A DNA stretch of 38,954 nt, taken from assembly GCF_004010195.1 (NCBI RefSeq), contig NC_057718.1:52980280-53019233 (forward strand). Reading direction: 5' to 3'. Every line of letters starts with the position of its first letter. The first letter of the stretch is position 1. Shown one piece after another: positions 1 through 38,595 of the stretch. Source of the DNA: Chiloscyllium plagiosum (Eukaryota). The notes under the pieces are model-generated. The model did not search any database and was not told the origin of the DNA. It saw only the letters and a list, made by a program, of their open reading frames with translations. Position numbers and translations under genes: made by a program.

Positions 1-399
1 ACGTGTCAGATTGTGGACATAGATACCACTATTATGCGTGGGAACACCTCCCACCTTGTACATGGCAGGTACTCATGTGACTCAGCCAACGTCGTCTATC
101 TTATACGTTTCAGGCAAGGATGCCCGGAGGCATGGTACATTGGGGAAACCGAGCAAAGGTTACGACAACGGATGAATGGGCACCGCACAACAATCAACAG
201 ACAGGAGGGTTCCCTCCCAGTTGGGGAACACTTCAGTGGTCCAGGACATTCAGCCTCGGACCTTCGGGTGACCATCCTCCAAGGTGGACTTCGGGACAGG
301 CAGCAGAGGAAAGTGGCTGAGCAGAGGCTGATAGCTAAGTTCGGTACCCATAGGGAGGGCCTCAACCGGGACCTTGGGTTCATGTCACATTACAGGTGA
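1..399 (+). CDS. C-terminal GIY-YIG endonuclease domain of the PLE polyprotein (frame open from the window start, so 5'-partial)
   Basis: Translation TCQIVDIDTT...HGRYSC..NVVYLI..WYIGET.Q.LRQRMNGHR..VGEHF...H...AEQRLI..F......GLN contains the VVY/YIG, R, E and N motifs of PLE GIY-YIG domains. Confidence 0.85.
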   Translation, partial: TCQIVDIDTTIMRGNTSHLVHGRYSCDSANVVYLIRFRQGCPEAWYIGETEQRLRQRMNGHRTTINRQEGSLPVGEHFSGPGHSASDLRVTILQGGLRDRQQRKVAEQRLIAKFGTHREGLNRDLGFMSHYR

Positions 400-410
400 T
401 CACCATTGCA

Positions 411-412
<2 letters not shown>

Positions 413-447
<35 letters not shown>
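413..447 (+). repeat. (CA)n microsatellite
   Basis: Directly visible ACAC run; explains the HT-repeat ORFs at 396-746 and 406-618. Confidence 0.97.
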
Positions 448-450
<3 letters not shown>

Positions 451-928
451 TCTCACACTCACAACCCCCACCCCAGACAGACACACAGACAGACAAAGAC
501 CCAAATGCACACATATATATTGTGTGTGGTGATTTGTTTGGTACTTTCAGAGTTACATTGCACTTTGCTCAAAAACCACATAGATTCATGTCAAACTCTG
601 AGCTCAAAAACTGCATGAATTTATGTAAAACTCCTTTATTTCTCTTTTTAGATTGGAATCAATCTAAACATCGGGTCATAGACAGAGAACACAGGAGGCG
701 AACACCTTCAACATATTGTCTAGATATCGCCATTGTAAACAGCTAACCCCAGAATGCAATTTTAAAAAAAAGGGTTTTGGGATTTACACATGAAAGTAGT
801 GAAACTATCACTGTATTCTAACAGATGAAAGGCTTAACAGACAATCAATTCTTCAATGTATAATTTCAGTTACATCACACTGCAAATTTTTGCTATAAAT
901 TCTGTGTTACGATCGAGCCCTCCACAAT

Positions 929-963
929 CACCTGATGAAGGAGCGTCGCTCCGAAAGCTAGTG
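929..963 (+). ncRNA. Minimal type-I hammerhead ribozyme, intact core
   Basis: CAC-CTGATGA-A-GGAGC-GTC-GCTCC-GAAA-GC-TA-GTG: stem I CAC/GTG, CUGAUGA core, stem II GGAGC/GCUCC, GAAA, palindromic AGCU stem III, UA cleavage site after 960. Confidence 0.85.
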
Positions 964-1019
964 TGCTTCCAATTAAACCTGTTGGACTATAACCTGGTGC
1001 TGTGTGATTTTTAACTTTG

Positions 1020-2050: not shown

Positions 2051-2628
2051 TTATGAGACTTCCACAGTAGCAGACTTCGTAATCTTTTTATGCATCATGA
2101 ATATTTATTGTATCTGTGCAACAGAGTGAATTTTAGCACTATGAGATGAATATTTAAATGATTACCTGTTAGTATCTATCCTGATCAGCATTAAATGATT
2201 TGAGATAAAAGAAGTATAAAAAAAGGGTGATGTGTTGACTGTCATTCTGCATCTCACTGTTTATGAGGAGAGGATCCTAACTCTGACCACACTGAGCAGA
2301 GTCCAGACTGGGTATAGGAGGCTGCTCTTGACTTTCTGTGCCAGAATCTCTTTAGCAAAGACTGTCTCCCTTGACTGGACTGGAACCTGTTAACATCCAT
2401 GGCAATCTTCCTGGCTGTGTTTGAATGGCATGAGCCAGTAGTAATATGAGCCTGGAATCTCTGGCTGAGGGTGGCAATGTGCAAAAAGGCCAGGCAAGGC
2501 AATGCTGGGCAGGGATGTTGTACGCATTCAGGTTGGCACATGATTTGGAGATACTGGTGTTGGACTGGAGTATACAAAGTTAAAAATCACACAACAGCAG
2601 ATTATAGTCCAACAGGTTTATATGGAAG

Positions 2629-2663
2629 CATGGACTTTCGGAGCACTGCACCTTTATCAGGTT
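2629..2663 (-). ncRNA. Decayed hammerhead motif (probably inactive)
   Basis: Minus strand reads AAC-CTGATAA-A-GGTGC-AGT-GCTCC-GAAA-GTCC; the core G8 is changed to A and stem III is disrupted. Confidence 0.65.
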
Positions 2664-3044
2664 GTTGTGGAATGTAAGATCACAAGACACAGAATTTATA
2701 GTAACAATTTTCAGTGTGATGTAACTGAAATTATGCATTGAAAAAGACCAGGATTGTCTGTTAAGTCTCCCATCTCTTAGAATGAACATATTAGTTTCAG
2801 TTCTTTCGAATGTAAATTACAGAACATTTTTAAAGTTACATTCTCAGGTGAACTTCAACAATTGGTGTCATGTCAGCCTAGATAATGCATTGAAGGTGCG
2901 AGGTACCCTGTGAGACTGTCTGTGCCACAATGTTCAGACTGATTCTAATCTAAAAAAATGGATTTGCAAAATCTTACATGAATTCATGCAGTTTTTGAGC
3001 AAAATAAAATGTAAATCTGAAAGTACAAATTCATCCCACAAACT

Positions 3045-12297: not shown

Positions 12298-12598
12298 ATT
12301 ACAAAAGCAGAAATTGCTGGAAAAGCTCAGCAGGTCTGGCCACATCTATGGAGAGAAATCAGAGTTAATGTTTTGAGTCCATGACCCTTCCTCAGAACTG
12401 ATGGTAACTAGGAAGATGTCAGTTTATATGCAGAAGATAGGGGTTGTGTGTAATAGCAGACTATGTGTTTACAAGGCCTGACGTATGGGAGTAGGGTAAG
12501 GACATAGGAGAACTCGGGCCCAAATGTTATTGAACTTGATATTGAGTCCAAAAGGCTGCAGGGTCTCCAAATGGAAAATGAGGTGTTATTTTTCCAGA
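12298..12598 (-). mobile_element. PLE 3' fragment of a second family: GIY-YIG C-terminus plus terminus with decayed hammerhead
   Basis: Minus strand from 12598 translates LEK*HLIFHLETLQPFGLNIKFNN; the terminus ccagacctgctgagcttttccagca resembles 22634-22660. Confidence 0.75.
12364..12398 (-). ncRNA. Decayed hammerhead motif
   Basis: GTT-CTGAGGA-A-GGGTC-ATG-GACTC-AAAA-CATT-AAC: stems I and II are retained; GAAACG appears to have become AAAACA, consistent with CpG decay. Confidence 0.65.
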
Positions 12599-14861: not shown

Positions 14862-16345
14862 TTAGTTACTCCCCTTCTTGAACAGGGCAACCACATTTGC
14901 TATCCTCCAGTCTTCTGGCACTATTCCTGTAGACAATGATGATTTAAAGATCAATGCCATAGGCTCAGCAATCTCCTCCCTGGCTTCCCAGAGGATCCTA
15001 GGATAAATCCCATCTGGCCCAGGGGACTTATCTATTTTCACACATTGCAGGATTTCTAATACCTCAATCCCACCTAGTCTAGTAACCTGTATCTCAGTAA
15101 TCTCCTTGACAACATTGTCATTTTCTAGAGTGAATATTGTTGAAAAATATTCATTTAGTACTTCCCCTTTGTCCTCTAACACCACAGACAAAACTTCCCA
15201 CTACTATCCTTGATTGGCCCTAATCTTATTCTTGTCATTCTTTTATTCCTTAAATACCTATAGAAAGCCTTAGGGTTTACCCTGATCCTATCCGCCAACA
15301 ACTTCTCATGTCTCCTCCTGGCTCTCCTGAGCTCTCTCTTTAGGTCTTTCCTGGCTACCTTGTAACCCTCAAGCGCCCTAACTGAGCCTTCACATCTCAT
15401 CCTAACATAAGCCTCCTTCTTTCTCTTGACCAGAGATTCAACTTCCTTCGTAAGCCACGGCTCCCACGCTCTACAGCTTCCTCCCTGCCTGACATGTACA
15501 TACTTATCCAGGACACACTGTAACTTTTCCTTCGATAAGCTCCACATTTCTAATGTGCCTATCCCCTGCAGTTTCCTTTCCCATCCTATGCTTCCTAAAT
15601 CTTGCCTGGTCGCTTCATAATTGCCTTTTCCCCAGTTGTAACTCTTGCCCAGTGGTATACACCTATCCCTTTCTATCACTAAAGTAAACATAACAGAATT
15701 GTGATCGCTATCACCAAAGTGCTCACCTACTTCCAAGGCTAACACCTGGCCCGGCTTGTTACCCAGTACCAAATCTAATGTGGCTTCGCCCCTCGTTGGC
15801 CTGTCTACATACTGTGTCAGAAAGCCCTCCTGCACACACTGGACAAAAACTGACCCATCTATAGTACTCATACTATAGTGTTCCCAGTCATTATTTGGAA
15901 AGTCGAAGTCCCCCATGACAACTACCCTGTCTCTCTCACTCCTATTGAGAATCATCTTTGCTATCCTTTCCTCTACATCTCTGGAGCTATTTGGAGGCCT
16001 ATAGAAAACTCCCAACAGGGTGACCTCTCCTTTCCTGTTTCTAACTTCAGCCCATACTACCTCAGCTGATGAGTCCCCAAACATCCTTTCTGCAACTGTA
16101 ATACTATCCTTGACCAACAATGCCACACCTCCCCCTCTCTTACCATCTTCTCTGTTCTTACTGAAACATCTAAACAACAACCATTCCTGTCCCTGCTCTA
16201 ACCATGTCTCTGAAATGGCCACAACATCGAAGTCCCAGGTACCAACCCATGCTGCAAGTTCACCCACCTTATTCCGGATGCTCCTTGCGTTGAAGTAGAC
16301 ACACTTCAAATCAACTTCTTGCTTGCCAGTGCCTTCTTGCGTCAC
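14862..16345 (-). pseudogene. CR1 ORF2 N-terminal part: apurinic-like endonuclease and linker (389-aa open frame, then frameshift)
   Basis: YFNARSIRNK, AISETWL, GGGVALLVK, FYRPPN, VMGDFDFP, LDLVL, GDSDHN motifs, then DKSPGPDGIYPRIL and VPEDWRIANV. Confidence 0.93.
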
Positions 16346-16394
16346 TGAAACTTGATTTCGGACCTCCCTACTCTCAACTTTTTCTATACTTGAA

Positions 16395-17103
16395 CTACAA
16401 TTTTGGTTCCCATCCCCTAGCTCTAAGCTTCCATCCTAGCTCCCTGAATTTCTGCCTTAAATCTCCATCTCTCTTTCTACCTATGTCGTTGGTGCCTATG
16501 TGGAACTTGACTTGAGGCTGCTCCCCCTCCCCCTTAAGGATCCCAAAAACACGATCAGAGACATCACGAACCCTGGCATCTGGGAGGCAACACACCAACC
16601 GTGAGTCTCTCTCATCCCCACAGAACCTCATATCTTTCCTGCTAGCTTTTGAGTCCCCATTGACTACTGCTCTGCTCCTCTTCCCCTTTCCCTTCTGAGC
16701 AGCAGGGACAGACTCTGTGCCAGAGCCCTGTACCCCACTGCTTTCCCTTGGTAAGTCCCCCCCCCCAACAGTATCCAAAACGGTATACTCATTGTTGAGG
16801 GAAATGGCCCAGGGGATCATGCACTGCCTGCCGGTTCCCCTTCCGTCCCCTGACTGTAACCCTTTTGCCTTTTTCTTGTACCTTAGGAGTGACTACCTCC
16901 CTGTGACTCCTCTCAATAACCCCCTCTGCCTCCCGAATGATCCGAAATTCATCCAGCTCCAGCTCCAGTTTCCTAGCGCAGTTTTCGAGGAGCTGGAGTT
17001 GGGTGCACTTCCCGCAGATGTAGTCAGCAGGGACACTAGTGGTGACCCTTACCTCCAACATTCTGCAGGAGGAACATTCAACTTCCCTAACCTCCATTCC
17101 CAC
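16395..17103 (-). pseudogene. CR1 ORF1 (CxxC...CxxC zinc finger/coiled coil plus SGNH esterase), frameshifted and C-terminally deleted
   Basis: CSSC...CGKC.QLQLLE....LE..LD, followed by the esterase blocks VNGDS, CLPDA and HIGTND. Confidence 0.88.
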
Positions 17104-21169: not shown

Positions 21170-22400
21170 TAAATAAATTATCACCACAGAAACAAACTTT
21201 TGAAGCTATGATTGACAAGTCCTTGGATCATGGTGGACTTGATTTTTGAGTCTTACAAGAAGTGGCTATTGAGATAGTTGAAGTATTGGTTTTAAATTTT
21301 TTAATTTCCTTAGATTAATGGAACGTTAGATTAGATACAAAAATGTCAAATGTAACTCCTTTATCCAAAGGATAGGAAGACAAAAAGATGTAAAAACAGC
21401 TTATTATGTCATAGCGATAATGTTAGAATCTATTATTTAAAACATTACAACAGGGCACTTGGGAAAGTTCAAGATAATCATATGGAATAAACATGGATTT
21501 GTGAAAGAAACAGTATATTTAACTAATTTTTGAAGTTCTTTTAGGATGTTATATGTACAGAGGATAAAGGGAAACCAGTGGATATTCTGTACTTATATTT
21601 TCAAAAGCTATTTGATAAAATACCACATCAAATGTTATAATGGACAATAAAAGCTCATGGTGTATGGGGCAACATGTTGCTATTATTACAAGGTTGGTTA
21701 GGTAACAGGAAACAAGGTGTTGTCATTTCCTGGTTTGCCAATGTGCAGGTACAGCAAACAATTAGGAATACTGACAGGATTTAATCATTTATTGTGACTG
21801 AAATTGAGTACAATTGTAAGGACATTATGCTTCAGTCAAGCAGGACATAGGTGAGACCACATTTAAAGGGCATTCTTATTAATCGGTCTTCTTATTTAAA
21901 GAAGAATGCAAATGTGTAAAAAACTTTTTAAAGAAGGTTGACCAGACTGATATCTAGGATCGATGGGCAGCCTTTTGAGGAAATGTTTAACAGGAAGGAC
22001 TGGAACCTGTCGTAAGTAGGAGACAGTTTGATTGAAACATTTAAGATCCTGAAAAATCTTGACTGGGTGGATTCAGCAAATATGTTTCTTCTTGTGGGTG
22101 AATCTAAAACAAAGAGTCAAAATTTAAAAGTAAGGTATCACCAATTTAAAACAGAGATGAGTGTTTTCTCGTCATGTAAATTTGTGAGTCTTTGGAATTT
22201 ACATCCTCAAAACAAAGTGGAAGCCCTTGAATATCTTTAAAGCACAGGGAGGCAGATTCTTGAAAGACAATAGGGTGAAAAGATATTCAGGGAGGTAGAA
22301 ATGTTTGGAATCAGATCAGCCATGTTTTATGGAATAGTCAGCAGGCTTGAGGAACCAAGTGGTCTACTCCTGCTCTTAATACAAAGATTTGGATTCATAT
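21170..22400 (+). mobile_element. Old CR1 ORF2 3' half, degenerate with deletions
   Basis: Remnants DKSLG, NVTPL, VDILYL.FQK.FDKIPH, LIETFKILK and a CR1-type end near 22345-22380. Confidence 0.8.
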
Positions 22401-22419
22401 GTGCCTCTCCAAAAAGGTA
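22347..22419 (+). repeat. 73-bp direct repeat, left copy
   Basis: ttgaggaaccaagtgg...ctctccaaaaaggta is identical to 22713-22785. Confidence 0.95.
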
Positions 22420-22478
22420 GCTGAAAATGTGTTGCTGGAACAGCGCAGCAGGTCAGGCAGCATCCAGGGAACAGGAGA

Positions 22479-22512
22479 ATCGATGTTTCGGGCATAAGCC
22501 CTTCTTCAGGAA
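22479..22512 (-). ncRNA. Hammerhead motif (stem III palindrome broken)
   Basis: TTC-CTGAAGA-A-GGGC-TTAT-GCCC-GAAA-CA-TC-GAT on the minus strand. Confidence 0.7.
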
Positions 22513-22522
22513 ACCTGATTCA

Positions 22523-22556
22523 TTCCTGAAGAAGGGCTTATGCCCGAAACGTCGAT
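22523..22556 (+). ncRNA. Minimal type-I hammerhead ribozyme, intact core
   Basis: TTC-CTGAAGA-A-GGGC-TTAT-GCCC-GAAA-CG-TC-GAT: ACGU palindromic stem III, GUC cleavage triplet ending at 22553; stem I is short. Confidence 0.8.
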
Positions 22557-22580
22557 TCTCCTGTTCCCTGGCTGCCTTTA

Positions 22581-22614
22581 TTCCTGATGAAGGGCTTTTG
22601 CCCGAAACGGCGAT
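22581..22614 (+). ncRNA. Hammerhead motif with mutated cleavage triplet
   Basis: TTC-CTGATGA-A-GGGC-TTTT-GCCC-GAAA-CG-GC-GAT; GGC replaces GUC. Confidence 0.7.
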
Positions 22615-22712
22615 TTCGCCTGTCCTTGGATGCTGCCTGAACTGCTGTGCTCTTCCAGCACCACTAATCCAGAATCTGGTTTCCAGCATCTGCAGTCATT
22701 GTTTTTACCTCG

Positions 22713-22785
22713 TTGAGGAACCAAGTGGTCTACTCCTGCTCTTAATACAAAGATTTGGATTCATATGTGCCTCTCCAAAAAGGTA
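22713..22785 (+). repeat. 73-bp direct repeat, right copy
   Basis: Identical to 22347-22419. Confidence 0.95.
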
Positions 22786-22965
22786 CTCTGCCTCTCCAAA
22801 CAACGGTGATGAACATAGGTCTTTTCATGTGTAAAGCTTACAAGTCATGTTTTAGACATTCCATAACAGAAAGTTGTATATCTTTGAAGACAGCTTACCT
22901 TTTGCCTCCATAAATCATAATTGTATAAAGCCCAACCCCTGCTCTCCCTTGTTGAAAATGGTGGA

Positions 22966-25858: not shown

Positions 25859-26322
25859 ATGAGAGTTAGGTTTAGATTAGGTTTCATTGCCATGTTTTTT
25901 TTTGTTACGTTACTCATATACGGTGTACAAGAGGACATTGAAAACTAAGTGGATACATGTAACTTTGCAATTTTCCATGTTGTAAATTCTATGATGCAGC
26001 ATAATTGCAAGTGGAGCTAAAGTGCAATTATATGCAGAATATCACAGGACTTAATGTCTCAAATCCAGGCAGACGCCTTGACACCTAAATTCAATGTCTT
26101 TATTCTATGTGTCTCTTATCAATGTTAGATCATGACAAATAAAAACAGGAGTAGAGGTTGACCCAGCAAGACTGCTCCATCATTCAATAGGATCATTGCA
26201 CCACATTCATTTTCTTGCCCTTCCCCCTAACTCTTGATGCCTTTACTGGTCAAGAATTTACATAACTCAGCCTTAAATATACACAAGGACTCTGTGCCGA
26301 CAGCTCTCTGTAGCAACGAGAT

Positions 26323-27650
26323 CCAAGATGGTGGCGGAGGAGGACGCTCAGCCAGAGCGTGTCCATTCCATCTATTCTTCTTCCGCTTTCTTTCTTTTTC
26401 TTTCCTCTTAGTGTCTTTTACTTCTCTATCCCAGCCTCCGATGACTCCTGGCCTTGTGCAGCAGCCTCCTGGCGTGAAATGGCGACCTCCCAGCGTGATG
26501 CAGCAGCCTCCCTTAGCGATCTCCCGGCCTGGTGCAGTAGCCTCCCATAGTAGCCTTCTGGCATGGTGAAGCAGCCTCCCATAGTGGCCTTCTGGCCTGG
26601 TGCAGTAGCCTCCCATAGCAGCCTCCTGGCCTGGTGCAGCAGCCTCCCATAGTGATCTCCCGGCCTGGTGCAGCAGCCTCCTATAGCGATCTCCTGGCCT
26701 GGTGCAGCTGCCTCTATAGCGATCTCCAGGCCTGGTGTAGCAGCCTCCCATAGCGATCTCCTGGTCTGGTGCAGCAGCCTCCTATAGCGATCTCCTGGCC
26801 TGGTGCAGTAGCCTCCCATAGTAGGCTTCTGGCCTGGTGCAGCAGCCTCCCATAGTAGCCTCCTAGCCTGGTGCAGCAGCCTCCCATAGTGATCTCCCGG
26901 CCTGGTGCAGCAGCTTCCCATAGCAGCCTCCTGGCCTGGTGCAGTAGCCTCCCATAGTAGCCTTCTGGCCTGGTGCAGCAGCCTCCCATAGTAGCCTCCT
27001 GGGCTGGTGCAGCAGCCTCTCATAGCGATCTCCCGGCCTGGTGCAGCAGCCTCCCACAGCGATCTCCTGGCCTGGTGCAGCAGCCTCCTATAGCGATCTC
27101 CCGGCCTGGTGCAGCAGCCTCTCATAGCGATCTCCCGGCCTGGTGCAGCAGCCTCCCATAGCGATCTCCCAGCTTGGTGCAGCAGCCTCCCATGGAGATC
27201 TCAGGGTCTGGTGCAGCAGCGTCCCTTAGCGATCTCCTGGCCTAGTGCAGCTGCCTCCCATAGCAGCCTCTTGATCTGGTGCAGCTGCCTCCCATTGCAA
27301 CCTCCCGGTGTGGTGGAGTTACCTCCTGGTGTGGCATGGCAATCTCCCAGCCCAGCATGGTGGCCTCTCTACCTACTGAAGCAGCCTCCTGGATGGCAAT
27401 CTGAAGCACTCTCCCGGCCTTATAAATCTCAAGGTGAAACCCTGTGAAGTCTGCAGCTAGGGCCCAGTGTGGTCTGTTGTTCTGAACTTTTATTTCTGCA
27501 ATGCTGGACATTTTGTTTCTCAATTGTCTAAGATCTTATAACTAAAGAACCTGTACCTATGTATCTTTGTACCTAGGTTGGCACTGTAAGTGGTGACATA
27601 TAAACCTTCCACTATCCTCATTGTGTATATGTGACAATAGAGGCTAATTC
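26323..27650 (+). mobile_element. Putative non-autonomous retroposon with internal VNTR and Rex1-like 3' tail
   Basis: Interrupts the CR1. Starts ccaagatggtggcgg and ends aaaccttccactatcctcattgtgtatatgtgacaatagag, similar to the Rex1 tail at 37785-37825 (minus strand). Confidence 0.6.
26494..27308 (+). repeat. 34-bp minisatellite, 24 units
   Basis: Unit CCTGGTGCAGCAGCCTCCCATAG followed by either CGATCTCCYGG or YAGCCTYCTGG; units counted by eye, one is 33 bp. Confidence 0.95.
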
Positions 27651-29908: not shown

Positions 29909-31060
29909 AATGCATATCCTCACCAGTGTATGGAACACTTTGTCACAACATATAAAGTGAACAGCTAAGGGGGAGAAAGGAGGGACAAGAGGCAGAAGAG
30001 AGGGAGTGAGAAAGAAAGGAAAGGGTGAAACAACTTATAGACAATCATTTTCTGGATGGGATGAGTGACTTCATGAGTAACTTTTCCAAATGTGAGATCC
30101 AATAAACAGAACGCCAATTCCCCTATCACTACAATCTAACACCTTACCTTCTGTCTTTTATACATAATCACAATAGCTGGCCATGACACATATTTATCAC
30201 TAACCAAAATGGGCAAATCAAATTTACAAAGCAAAGATTCTTATAATGCATACAGAAAGCAACAAAACCCCATCTCTTATGCGTTTTCTTCATCCCTGTT
30301 TTCTGAGTGTACATGTCTGTACTACAATGACTGTGACAAGACTGGTGGAAGGCTGTTGTCCTTCATTGGAGGAGATTATAATTCCTATTGGGTGTTTTCA
30401 GGCAGCTGACCTTAAAAGTCTGGGCTTTAATTGGGACGGTATGATCTCAGCATGGGCAGCAATTATCTCAACTGGCTGGCTGACTGGAGATAGCAAAGAC
30501 ACTGGTAAACAAAGCAGAGGGAGGATTTATACTGTCATCCTGAGAGACAGGGCAGCAGGCTCATGCTCCATTAAACTATTTCCTATTACCCTTGACCGGT
30601 GCTTTAGCAAACCTGGTAACTTGCTGGAGGGCTATGAGCTCAATTTGCTCGTGGTGCAGAGGAGTTGGAAACTTATTCCATGGAACACCACATTTTTATT
30701 GGTTCCACAACCATTCTGAAAGAGTTGACCATCAAATCCAGGTGGAAGAGTATGAACTCTGGGCTCTTGTAAAGCCCTGTCCATGCTTCTTCACAACTTG
30801 CAGGTCCTACCTTGAAGCTGTCTTTTGAATTAAAGGCAGGGCCAATGCATGAGCTAATGAATGTGATGATAAAAGTGAATGATGTGTTTCTTCTTTATCC
30901 TGGCCTCACAGTTTTCTATCTCTTGCTCTCTAGCCCATTCGTACTTCTGGGTATCTAAGAGAAAGAAAGACACTCGAAGTGAAGAAAGGAGGGGTAAGTA
31001 AGAGGTCGCTGGTAATACAACATGTAGCTTATAAATCAGAAGAGATTCTATGATAAGAGA

Positions 31061-31388
31061 GGCATGGTGGCTCAGTGGTTAGCACTGCTGCCTCACAGTG
31101 TCAGGGACCTGAGTTCGATTCCAGCCTTGGGCAGACTGTCTGTATGGAGGTTGCACATTTTCCCTGCTTCTGCGTGGGTTTCCTCCGGGTGTTCCAGTTT
31201 CCTCCCACAATCCAAAGACATGCAGGTTAGGTGAATTGGCCGTGATAAATTGCCCGTAGTATTCAAGAATGTGTAGGTTAGGTGTGTTAATCAAGGGTAA
31301 ATACAGGATAATGGAGAATGTCTGGGTAGGTGTGAACTTGTTAGGCCGAAGGGCCTGTTTCTATACTGTAGGAATTCTATGATTCTAC
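31061..31388 (+). mobile_element. HE1-type SINE (variant tail, ATTCTATG repeat)
   Basis: TGGCTCAGTGG A box, AGTTCGATTCC B box, family homology. Confidence 0.9.
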
Positions 31389-34289: not shown

Positions 34290-37200
34290 TTTGTGGGTGT
34301 AAAAGCTGCTCCTTTTTTGAGGTATTTTAGGTGCTGGAGGTGATTTCCTCGAATTCCAGGAGCAGCAATTACTGTTTTATATGCTGTTATATTGTTTTGG
34401 AACTTTGGAGGAAAAAAGGCAAAACAACAGTATTTTTAAAAGGGAGAATTACAGACAATAGGCAGCACATAATCAGTGAAGGAGAGAGAGAGAGAATCCC
34501 ACTGCTAACTAACACAGTTACTGCCTTTGCTGTTTGAATTCATGTATCATTGGGCATGGGAGGATTTCTCAGAAAACTTAACAAATAGTGAAATTCACAA
34601 CTGATCTTGGAGGAACTGATCTTGCAGAGGTCACAGCACAGAAATAGATAAGTGTGTAACTTTAAGCATAGCCTTGCTGTAATTCTACAATAGTGAGTAG
34701 AGTGGCTTGTTTCTTCATTCCATGTTTTATTGAGATCTGTCTCTTGATTAAATTTTAAAAATATAAGCCATAGGTACTAAGTTAACCTGGAAAAGTGTTT
34801 TGTAGAGCAATAAGATGGTGCTATTTTCTGGGCCTGTAGAGCGGAAGAAGCAAAAATGGCCCTTTGTAAAGTGATATGCTCTTTTTGTCAGATGCGGGAG
34901 TTAAGGGAGAGTGTACGTGTTACTGAAGATTAGATCTGCAATAAATGTCATTGGTTGCAAATCCTATCCTATTGAATGGATCAGTTGGAGTGACAGTTCA
35001 AGCAAATGAGGATTTACAAGAGCAAAGGGGTGGGATGGATGGCAGTTACAGAAAAGGAGAAAAGTCGCAGATACAGTCACATAACTCCAGGAAAAGTAGG
35101 AGAGGTAGGCAGGTAGTGTAGCAGTCTTCTGTGGTTATCCCCATTTCAAACAAGTATGCTGTTTTGGAAAATGTAGGGAGTGATGGATTCTCAGGGAAAT
35201 GTAGCACGAACAGCCAAGTTTCTAGTATCAAGAATGGCTCTAATGTAATGAGGGATACATCGAGTTCCAAGAGATCAATTGTAATAGGGGACCTCTCTAG
35301 TCAGAGGCACAAACAAGTGTTCTGGTTCCAGCAGTGAGAAATCAGAATGGTGTGTTGCTTCCCTGCTGCCAGGATCAAGGATGTCTCAAGGAGGAGAGGG
35401 ACCAGCAGGATGTCATTGGAACCAATGACATAGGAAAGGAAAAGGATGAGATTCTGAAGGGAGAATATAGAAAGTTTGTCAGGAATTTAAAAAGGAGATC
35501 CTCGAGGGTAGTAATATCGAGATTACTCGTGGTGCTGCGAGCTAGTTAGAGTAAGAATAGGATAGAGCAGATGAATGCATGGCTGAGGAGCTGGTTGTAT
35601 CAGGGAAGGATTTACATGTTTGGATCATTGGAATCTCTTCTGGTGTAGACGTGACCTCTACAAGAAGGATGGATTGCATCTGAATTGGAAGAGGATTAAT
35701 ATACTGGCAGGGATATTTACTCGAGCTGCTCGGGAGGACTTAAACTAGTAAGTTTGGGGGTGGGATCCAGGGAGATGCTGAGGAAAGAGATCAATCTGAG
35801 ACTGGTACAGTTGATAAAAGAAGCGAGTCAAACAGCAAGGGCAGGCAGCGACAAAGCAGAAAACAAGGTAGAAATTAAACTGCATTTATTTCAATGCAAG
35901 AGGCCTAACAGGGAAGACAGATGAACTCAGGGCATGGTTAGGGACATGGGACTGGGATATCATAGTAATTACAGATAGGTGGCTCAGGGATAGACAGGAC
36001 TGGTAGCTTCATGTTCCAGGATACAAATGCTACAGGAAGGACAGAAAGGGAGGCAAGAGAGGAGGGGGAGTGGCATTTTTGATCAGGGATAATGTTACAG
36101 CTGTACATAGGGAGGATATTCCCAGAAATACATTCAGGGAAGTTATTTGGATGGAACTGAAAATAAGAAAGGGCTGATCATCTTATTGGGACTGTGTTAC
36201 AGAACTGCTAATTGTCAGCAGGAAACAAATTTGGAAGGAGATCTCAGTTATCTGTAAGAATAATAAGGTGGTTACGGTAGGGAATTTTAACTTTCCAAAC
36301 ATAGACTGGGACTGCCATAGTGTTAAGGGTTTAGATGGAGAGGAATTTGGTAATTATGTACAAGAAAAGTTTCTGATTCAGTATGTGGATGTACCTATGA
36401 GAGAAGGCGCAAAACTTGACCTACTCTTGGGAAATAAGACAGGTAAGGTGACTGAGGTGACTGTGGGGGAGCACTTTGGGGCCAATGAGCATAATTCTAT
36501 TAGTTTTAAAATAGTGAAGGAAAAGGGTAGGCTAGATCTAAAAGTTGAAATTCTAAATTGGACGAAGGCTAATTTTGACTGTATGAGGCAAGAATTTTCA
36601 AAAGCTGATTGGGGACAGATGTTCGCAGGTAAAGGGGTGGCTGGAAAATGAGAAGCCTTCAGAAATGAGAAAACGAGAGTTCAGAGACATTATATTCCTG
36701 TTAGGGCTAAAGGAAAGGCTGGTAGGTGTAGGGTAAACTGGATGACTAGAGAAATTAAGGGTTTACTTAAGAAAAAGAAGGAAGCATATGTCAGGTATAG
36801 ACAGGATAGATTGAGTGAATCCTTGGAAGAGTATAAAGGCAGTAGGAGTATACTTAAGAGGGAAATCAGAAGGGCAAAAAGGCGACATGAAATAGCTTTG
36901 GTAAACAGGGTAAAGGAGAATCCAAAGGTTTTTACAAATACATTTAAGGACAAAAGAATAACTAGGGAGAGATTAGTGGCCCCTCAAAGATCACAGGAGA
37001 TGGGAGAAGATACTAACCAAGTATTTTGTATCAGTGTTTACTGTGGAGAAGGACATGGAAGATTTGGATTGTGGGGAAATAGATGGTGACATCTTGAAAA
37101 ATGTCCATATTACAGAGGAGGAAGTGCTGGATGTCTTGAAACGTATAAAGGTGGATAAATCCCAGGATCCAATCAGGTGTACCCGAGAACTCTATGGGAA

Positions 37201-37752
37201 GCTAGGGAAGTGATTGCTGGGTCCCTTGCTGAGATATTTGTATCATTGATAGTCACAGGTGAGGTGCCGGAATACTGGAGGTTGGCTAACATGGCACCAC
37301 TATTTCAGAAAGGTGATAGGGATAAGCCAGGGAACGATAGACCAGTAAGCCTGACATCAGTATTGGGCAAATTGTTGGAGGGAATCCTCAGGGACAGGAT
37401 GTACATGTATTTGGAAAGGCAAGGATGGATTAGGGAAAGTCAACATGGCTTTATGCATGGGAAATTATGTCTCATAAACTTGATTGAGTTTTTTATAGAA
37501 GTAACAAAGAGGATTGATGAGGGCAGAATGGTGGATAAGGTCTATATGAACTTCAGTAAGGCGTTCGACAAGGTTCCCCATGGGAGACTGGTTGCCAAGT
37601 TAAGATCTCATGGAATACAGGGAGAACTAACTATTTGGATACAGAACTGGCTCAAAGGTAGAAGACAGAGGGTGGTGGTGGTGGGTTGTTTTTCAGACTG
37701 GAGGCCTGTGACCAGTGGAATGCCACAAGGATTGGTGCTGGGTCCTCTACTT
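34290..37752 (+). mobile_element. CR1 LINE with 5'UTR, ORF1 and ORF2 remnants, 3'-truncated
   Basis: ORF1 from ATG 34856 (CSFC...CNKC, IVIGD, IGTND); endonuclease (CIYFNARGL, VGNFNFP, LDLLLGN); RT (RPVSLTS, SQHGF, FSKAFDKVPH, PQGLVLGPLL). Confidence 0.93.
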
Positions 37753-38595
37753 TTGAATTGAATTGAATTGAAATGAATTGAATTTATTGGCACGTGTACC
37801 GAGGCACAGTGAAAATCTTTGTCTTGCAAGCATACAGGCAGATCACAGAGTTAAGTAGCATAGGTAGTGAATAATAGGTAATCAGCGGCAAAAACAAAAA
37901 CACAGGTACAGGAGAATATTAAGAGTTTGTGAGTCCATTCAGTATTCTAACAACAGTAGAGTAGAAACTGTTATGAAACAGGCTGGTGCGTGTGTTTAGG
38001 CTTGTAGATTGTAGAAAAACATTGCCAGGGTGGCATGGATCTTTAAGAATGCTGGCAGACTTTCCTTGACAGCAGGCATGGTAGATGGGTGGTTGGCCTT
38101 TGTGATTGTCCAGGCCGAGTTCACCAATCTCTGTAACCGTCTCAGATATTGAATGGTACACTAGCCATACCCGGCAGTGATATATCCAGACAGAATGCTC
38201 TCGATGGTGCACCGATAAAAATTGGCAAAGGTATTTGCCATCATGCCAAATTTCCTCAGCTGCCTGAGGAAGAAGAGAGGCTGTTGTAATCAGTGCATCC
38301 ACATGAGGAGTCCAAAAAAGCTTGCTCTGGATGACCACTCCCAGGAGCTTGACACTGTCCATTCGTTCCACCTCTGTGCTGTTAATGTGTAGAGGGGCAT
38401 AAGTAACATCCTGTCGAAAGTCAATAATGAGTCACTTGGTTTTGCCGGCATTAGAGCTAGGTTGTTCTCAGTGCATCATTTTTCCAGATCTTCTGCCTCC
38501 TGTCTGTAGTCTGTTTCGTCGCCATCTGACATTTGACCAACTATGGTGGTATCATCAGCGAACTTGTAAATGGCATTAGTCTGGTATTTGGCAGT
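37752..38595 (-). mobile_element. Rex1/Babar-type LINE 3' fragment with (TTCAA)n tail
   Basis: Minus strand YKFADDTTIVGQMSDGDETDYRQE, CTENNLAL, KTK*LIIDFR, VKLLGVVI, RTSLFHNSFY; tail cactgtgcctcggtacacgtgccaataaa plus (TTCAA)n. Confidence 0.88.

Follow-up and report, generated by a model that had tools for sequence, protein, structure and literature searches.

A 73-bp direct repeat around a composite hammerhead-bearing stub in Chiloscyllium plagiosum: a left copy probably lengthened after insertion

In the Chiloscyllium plagiosum genome assembly, a cassette of hammerhead-bearing repeat stubs is flanked by a perfect direct repeat of 73 bp. This raises the question whether the repeat is the footprint of the inserting element or whether one of its copies acquired its length later. 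We analyzed the 38,954 nucleotides around the locus (hereafter the window) and compared them with four of 23 sequencing runs: X1 (sample S1), X4 (S2, a second individual with the same species label as the window), X5 (organism B, a sister species) and the raw reads X19.

The repeat and its host target

Positions 22347-22419 and 22713-22785 are identical over 73 bp at a spacing of 366, with no extension of the match on either side, as the preliminary description had stated for the window sequence. Among exact direct repeats with copies at most 3 kb apart, searched in the window without the minisatellite region 26300-27500, this pair is the longest; the runner-up, 39 bp, lies between two SINE copies. 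Coincidence is excluded as its origin. What is confirmed here is presence in the window; the left copy at its 73-bp length in a living animal is an assembly-level statement. The two copies flank the cassette to within 1 and 4 bases rather than exactly, as had been claimed: the A at 22419 and the TTGA past 22712, the first 4 bases of the right copy and common to the element's tail, recur in reads of the family and may be derived from the element or from the target. The repeat and its surroundings comprise the following features:

22347..22361, + strand: proposed original target duplication, the first 15 bases of the left copy, apparently also present left of the cassette in S2 (X4 record 9 and simulation, below)
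22362..22419, + strand: 58-base extension of the left copy, proposed to be secondary (assembly splice or templated repair), seen at this length in the window only; exact copy of 22728-22785
22713..22785, + strand: right-hand 73-mer, original host DNA (X4 record 15; single copy in X5 record 17)
21545..21637, + strand: remnant of the reverse transcriptase of the old LINE in which the target site lies
22270..22380, + strand, limits approximate: decayed 3' tail of the same LINE
22768..22800, + strand: 12-bp local repeat (22768-22779 and 22789-22800) that predates the insertion

The target lies in an old LINE, a putative CR1. Its reverse-transcriptase remnant shares 13 of 25 residues with the window frame 37159-37758, which matches Pfam RVT_1; none of five short frames had a Pfam hit, and the remnant itself has no Pfam match. 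The 3' tail was placed by loose alignment to four other LINE ends of the window and by multi-copy variants at 22354 and 22363. The opening ~30 bases of the duplicated stretch are the last part of this tail, so that of the earlier wording, a decayed CR1 tail plus flank, the LINE tail holds for these ~30 bases and CR1 is a putative label. The 12-bp local repeat was considered as an insertion product and rejected, as it is present in organism B, whose contig has no gap there.

The preliminary description contrasted the 73 bp with target-site duplications (TSDs) of 4-7 bp elsewhere in the window. This baseline is at chance level. The best flanking matches of six other elements are 5, 5, 7, 6, 10 and 6 bp, compared with 4-9 bp at 142 random positions searched identically (150 were drawn, and 8 that fell in the minisatellite or in the 73-bp finding were dropped). 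Only the 10-bp match, a direct repeat at 31045-31054 and 31374-31383 that flanks a SINE copy, exceeds all 142 random positions.

The cassette and its family

Between the 73-bp copies lie 293 bases that contain three stubs of one repeat group, arranged as an inverted, a direct and a tandem unit, with hammerhead motifs:

22420..22512, - strand: unit 1, a tail-less stub of subfamily A in inverted orientation; its hammerhead core, 22509-22486, has a UGAAGA box; a T at 22484 alters the cleavage triplet
22513..22519, no strand: 7-base filler at the palindrome centre, between family breakpoints behind 22512 and before 22520
22520..22571, + strand: unit 2, a short stub of subfamily A in forward orientation, with its hammerhead core at 22526-22549; complementary to unit 1 at 51 of 53 positions
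22572..22712, + strand: unit 3, a tailed stub of subfamily B; its hammerhead core, 22584-22607, has a CUGAUGA box; loose ends of the family before 22572 and behind 22710

The three minimal cores were found by pattern and are predicted ribozymes; Rfam gave no hit at gathering score for them. The GTC cleavage triplet is intact in unit 2 alone, and in unit 3 it is broken by a G at 22610, where 97% of family reads have T. The cassette contains no open reading frame, and its strand folds as a long, very stable hairpin (z -17.4; -107.9 kcal/mol as DNA). Reads of the family continue into tail sequence left of 22419 and into further element sequence right of 22512. At the join of units 2 and 3 (22571/22572), the motif CTGCC occurs in both subfamilies and the three subfamily-A bases that precede it are absent, suggesting that the template was switched between RNAs of the two subfamilies.

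Judged from its sequence, the cassette is a composite, non-autonomous stub of a Penelope-like family, a known kind of insertion. It has a minimal hammerhead in a terminal repeat and an inverted 5'-truncated copy combined with a partial tandem, with a tail at one end; the family is dispersed, and the orthologous site is found empty. The excerpted texts on pLTR insertions of endonuclease-bearing Penelope-like elements (PLEs) describe the same arrangement: a head-to-head inverted 5'-truncated and direct copy, a partial tandem, a tail of 30-40 bp at one end only, a palindrome at the inverted junction and a flanking duplication (PMC3846280, PMC8557442). Our case differs in lacking an open reading frame, in combining units of two subfamilies and in its flanks, since TSDs in those excerpts are 8-10 bp or absent, compared with 73 bp in the window and probably ~15 bp in S2. 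The cores also resemble the minimal hammerheads of metazoan PLEs, as far as the excerpts of PMC4209133 describe them, in the CUGAnGA box, one unpaired base before helix II, a G-C pair opening helix II, the GAAA box and the lack of helix III; solo copies and opposite-strand pairs occur there in large numbers. By contrast, helix II has 4 bp in the cassette and 7-8 bp in Schistosoma (PMC4209133), and two of the three cassette cores lack the cleavage triplet.

The family is very abundant. From raw-read depth and an assumed genome size of 2.8-4.5 Gb, the two best-covered cassette segments are present in 83,000-133,000 and 31,000-49,000 copies. X19, a ~0.5x run used for copy number and family ends, has a depth of ~57,000 at the cassette end (22429-22461) and 0 over 22726-22960. 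It has no read on the unique flanks, an outcome expected 20-37% of the time, and so gives no genotype. Judged by the depths, the 73-mer does not travel with the cassette to other loci. An LTR element or retrozyme with 73-bp terminal repeats was ruled out, as the 73-mer is absent from the family. In X1, 170 contigs with long unrelated flanks leave the cassette sequence at 22419. Pattern scans for related loci gave no match in viral contigs; 30 matches in metagenome contigs were dropped as chance, none matching the cassette over more than 46 bases around the pattern or matching the rest of the window. Elsewhere in the window, 12300-12430 (- strand) is an older stub of a third related family that resembles the region behind the cassette hammerheads, with no core found by pattern.

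Empty and filled alleles

In organism B, one contig of 1,565 bases (X5 record 17) covers 22000-22355 and 22722-22937, leaving out exactly 366 bases. It represents the empty allele with a single 73-mer, for which the preliminary description had advised searching. The duplicated DNA is therefore host DNA and, given also the X19 depth, not an LTR, as that description had held. The one copy in organism B also rules out an ancient tandem duplication before the insertion. Organism A, to which sample S2 belongs, and organism B are mismatched at 13 of 572 aligned bases (2.3%). Perfect identity over 73 bp is compatible with up to 4.0% divergence, and the cassette has a base other than that of the family majority at three or more sites, including 22441, 22484 and 22610 (84%, 84% and 97% of reads differ), with 22484 also mismatched between the cassette's own two arms; thus the claim that the insertion is very recent is unsupported.

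Individual S2 provides a second filled allele. At a depth of 15-18, and with 84% of X4 read, record 15 (depth 16) runs unbroken and with 0 differences over 22690-22808, crossing the cassette end, the whole 73-mer and the right flank. The right junction is therefore real and independent of the assembly. X4 record 9 (depth 18), the sole contig covering 22282-22286, matches the window as far as 22361, the 15th base of the repeat, beyond which follow 24 unmatched letters. Contigs of these runs are expected to break at every graph branch, as partly seen from their 30-base overlaps. Any second copy sharing at least 31 bases should accordingly split record 15, which is unbroken. S2 appears to carry the same insertion, with the same right junction and a left-hand repeat of no more than 15 bases; the extension 22362..22419 is missing beside its left flank. 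Past 22361, the S2 left junction probably enters the element's tail: AAGTG, the five letters before the departure, occurs in the tail consensus of the family (background 1371 of 38285 positions, 3.6%), and TTGA at the right junction likewise occurs in the family tail. That 24 letters are unmatched and the tail has 24 letters left was not counted as independent support, since both follow from 30-letter limits. Records 15 and 16 of X4 break at 22779-22808 with a 30-base overlap and no partner contig.

We simulated the contig graph at depth 17. With a short-duplication homozygote, all 300 runs gave the X4 pattern, whereas each of five other genotypes gave it in 0 of 300. The model is toy-level, with its own tip clipping and no removal of bulges or connections. 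Sample S1 is less informative. X1 has a depth of 4-6; its record 1 equals the window along the left flank (0 differences in 377) and runs on to 22376, ending 30 bases into the repeat, as an empty allele would also do, and record 8 begins exactly at 22713 and passes 22785 without the branch expected from the window's left junction. In S1 the left flank and, presumably, the cassette both enter the 73-mer. This pattern arose in simulation for empty/window (59 of 300), empty/short (41), window/short (18) and window/window (16) genotypes, and X1 therefore cannot tell them apart.

The left junction of the window shares 1 base only. No bridge over 22419|22420 was found among the 24 pieces listed of 222,483 or the 15 joints listed of 1,114. 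For the assembly artefact that the preliminary description had named as a risk, this means that the right junction is secured by X4 record 15 and that the left leaves room for an artefact. Compared with the filled allele of S2, the left flank of the window has a 5-base indel and 2 substitutions; at 22923 the window agrees with S2, and X1 record 8 and organism B have A. These markers weakly fit the window as a mosaic. The window is free of N, and its minisatellite of about 1 kb is resolved, which suggests a long-read assembly. This minisatellite (26377-27423) has a 34-bp unit in at least 23 copies.

Origin of the long left copy

We suggest that the 73-bp repeat is probably not the footprint of the jumping element and that its left copy was lengthened later, by repair or by an assembly splice. 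That the 58 extra bases are secondary by some route we consider about 75% probable; this figure and the grading of all readings below are judgement, not computation. Insertion into a formerly single site is observed. A composite Penelope-like stub entered the old LINE tail, either once the lineage had separated from organism B or on a haplotype that B does not show. Each cassette end would be the 3' end of a copied element RNA, with unit 3 primed from a bottom-strand nick at 22346|22347 and the inverted unit 1 from a top-strand nick ~15 bases downstream; the two cDNAs would meet at the 7-base filler, giving an ordinary duplication of ~15 bp, the S2 allele. Such a nick spacing would be near the TSDs of 8-10 bp given for rotifer Penelope elements in the excerpts of PMC3846280. 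Because a Poseidon-type protein nicks and extends both strands, a priming end may be expected on each side of the cassette; in vitro, the Anolis protein does so from two start sites that bound the tail. Unlike the cassette junctions, which share 4 and probably 5 bases, it primes without homology and prefers AT-rich ATT sites (PMC11167929, in part). At this one locus, the first nick is not in an AT-rich context and the end of the 73 bp is A-rich.

Within this secondary origin, the single likeliest cause is a splice of empty and filled haplotypes during assembly or gap filling at a heterozygous insertion, to which we give slightly less than an even chance. The window would then be a mosaic, in which the empty haplotype was followed for 58 bases past the true junction before a jump into the cassette of the filled haplotype, with the left tail dropped. 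We place this splice first, given a near-perfect hairpin with look-alikes by the tens of thousands, a single base in common at the junction and no supporting read for that junction among the listed pieces. Tandem and inverted PLE insertions are said to trouble assemblies (PMC8557442, in excerpt). False duplications and polishing switch errors are common in vertebrate assemblies, where perfect duplicates arise at heterozygous sites or contig boundaries and haplotypes are mixed in polishing; the errors in the excerpts of PMC8081667 are mostly read-length or larger, whereas an overshoot of 58 bp at an insertion is our extrapolation.

Several points weigh against a splice. That the 24 unmatched letters at the S2 left junction are element tail is an inference, the absence of a bridge covers only the listed pieces and joints, and X1 fits the window allele and the alternative equally well. 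The N-free window and the resolved minisatellite suggest long reads, with which such splices are rarer. The flank markers are few, one resting on a contig of depth 4; the simulation is toy-level, and the X4 break at 22779-22808 is unexplained. Moreover, since tail-less ends of inverted copies are normal for PLEs in the excerpts of PMC8557442 and 170 X1 contigs depart at 22419, the left junction of the window could be a natural end.

A real secondary event is a more tentative explanation for the same 58 bases. Breakage or stalling where the palindromic cassette begins on the left would have allowed the left end to copy them from the right copy or from an empty homologue, with the 15-bp duplication as primer homology, and then to rejoin the cassette near-bluntly with loss of the tail. 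Hairpin extrusion could be the trigger, as could re-cutting of the tail by the element's endonuclease; in D. virilis Penelope, the endonuclease reportedly depends on the tail for recognition and cleavage (cited in PMC11167929). All of the S2 evidence fits such a repair, as do the very stable hairpin, the equal compatibility of X1 with the window allele and the lack of N. On the other hand, the new junction has no read support among the listed pieces, the event would be rare per locus, and the window was chosen for looking odd. The return junction shares only 1 base, and templated end-joining usually leaves more.

A primary duplication of 73 bp is improbable. It would require opposite-strand nicks 73 bases apart, priming unit 3 with its tail and unit 1 without, and the S2 allele would be a later deletion from 22362 into the cassette. 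Two of its expectations agree with the data: the 73-mer is single in the empty allele of organism B, and it lies outside the element. Poseidon cleaves and extends both strands from two sites bounding the tail, so nick spacing could vary and a tail-less end could be natural (PMC11167929, in excerpt); the flank left of 22420 is A-rich, and a route for the deletion exists, as GTG ends both 22359-22361 and 22429-22431. Long TSDs occur in other non-LTR elements, with 126 bp in R9 and a median of 900 bp in Dualen, and are likewise host sequence on both sides, attributed to nick distance. In these LINEs, however, they are family-wide over many insertions (PMC9977147, in excerpt), whereas the 73 bp are seen at one locus and contradicted by a second allele. 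The 73-bp duplication does not recur on the insertion-bearing chromosomes of S2, where X4 leaves the window at 22361 and has no second copy of 31 or more bases. A later deletion would also explain this, but a primary origin then requires two rare events, a long TSD and then a deletion on both S2 haplotypes, and reduces the match of AAGTG to the tail to a 3.6% coincidence. PLE TSDs in the excerpts of PMC3846280 are 8-10 bp or absent. In addition, no bridge of the left junction is among the listed pieces, X1 record 8 lacks the expected branch, and the first nick site, GCAGGC^TTGAGG, is neither AT-rich nor furnished with an ATT motif.

Equally improbable is a general scheme in which head-to-head Penelope insertions arise by separate nicking and priming on each strand, at this locus from RNAs of two subfamilies, and in which the duplication length is the nick spacing of the GIY-YIG endonuclease and could reach 70 bp or more. 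The preliminary description had proposed the 73 bp as a possible signature of GIY-YIG integration; S2, with the same right junction and at most 15 duplicated bases on the left, makes this doubtful. Of its two suggested routes, repair synthesis is one of the two leading readings, and widely staggered nicks, as a primary 73-bp spacing, find no support in the other filled allele.

It is very improbable that S2 carries the window allele and that the stop of X4 record 9 at 22361 reflects the tool's splitting of letters found in two places, or graph cleaning. In favour of this, X5 record 17 was split 9 bases inside the repeat, so splits are not always true junctions, a contig could also stop 24 letters past 22361 owing to a variant at 22355, and 84% of X4 was read. 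Against it, no such split interrupts the first 30 repeat bases in X1 record 1, X4 record 15 is whole where a left copy sharing at least 31 bases would break it, and every genotype with the window allele gave 0 of 300 runs.

The completion of Penelope-like integration is still open, according to the excerpts of PMC8557442 and PMC11167929, and duplication length reads out the position of the second nick. If true, a primary 73-bp duplication would widen the known range of the class about seven-fold, and under the two-nick scheme a genome with ~100,000 copies would give the full distribution of nick spacings. The available part of the main text of PMC8934628 holds no usable distribution of duplication lengths. 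Titles and abstract openings yielded no report of long duplications for Penelope-like elements, in a weak search that left most subscription journals uncovered. For the long duplication, a secondary or artefactual origin is likelier than a new signature of integration. In this assembly, a perfect long duplication that flanks a palindromic stub of a high-copy family should be given a mechanistic reading only once reads support both of its junctions. The locus itself is useful, as its empty, short-duplication and long-duplication forms are distinguishable by one PCR.

Three other regions of the window contain relevant elements. Positions 1-1019 (+ strand) hold the 3' end of another Penelope-like element, a 132-aa frame followed by a terminal repeat with a hammerhead core at 932-956. 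The frame has GIY-YIG-like neighbours (PF01541 on 31-34% of members) and a weak match to T4 endonuclease II (E 0.095). Sequence similarity at this level indicates that hammerhead elements with a GIY-YIG-like frame exist in the genome; this one belongs to a different family and does not tie the cassette subfamilies to an open reading frame. At 2575-3000 (- strand), 1.55 kb away, lies an inverted, 74% identical copy of its terminal repeat in tail-to-tail orientation. The least decayed coding remnant among the frames listed is a 419-aa LINE endonuclease frame (Exo_endo_phos) at 15179-16435 (- strand).
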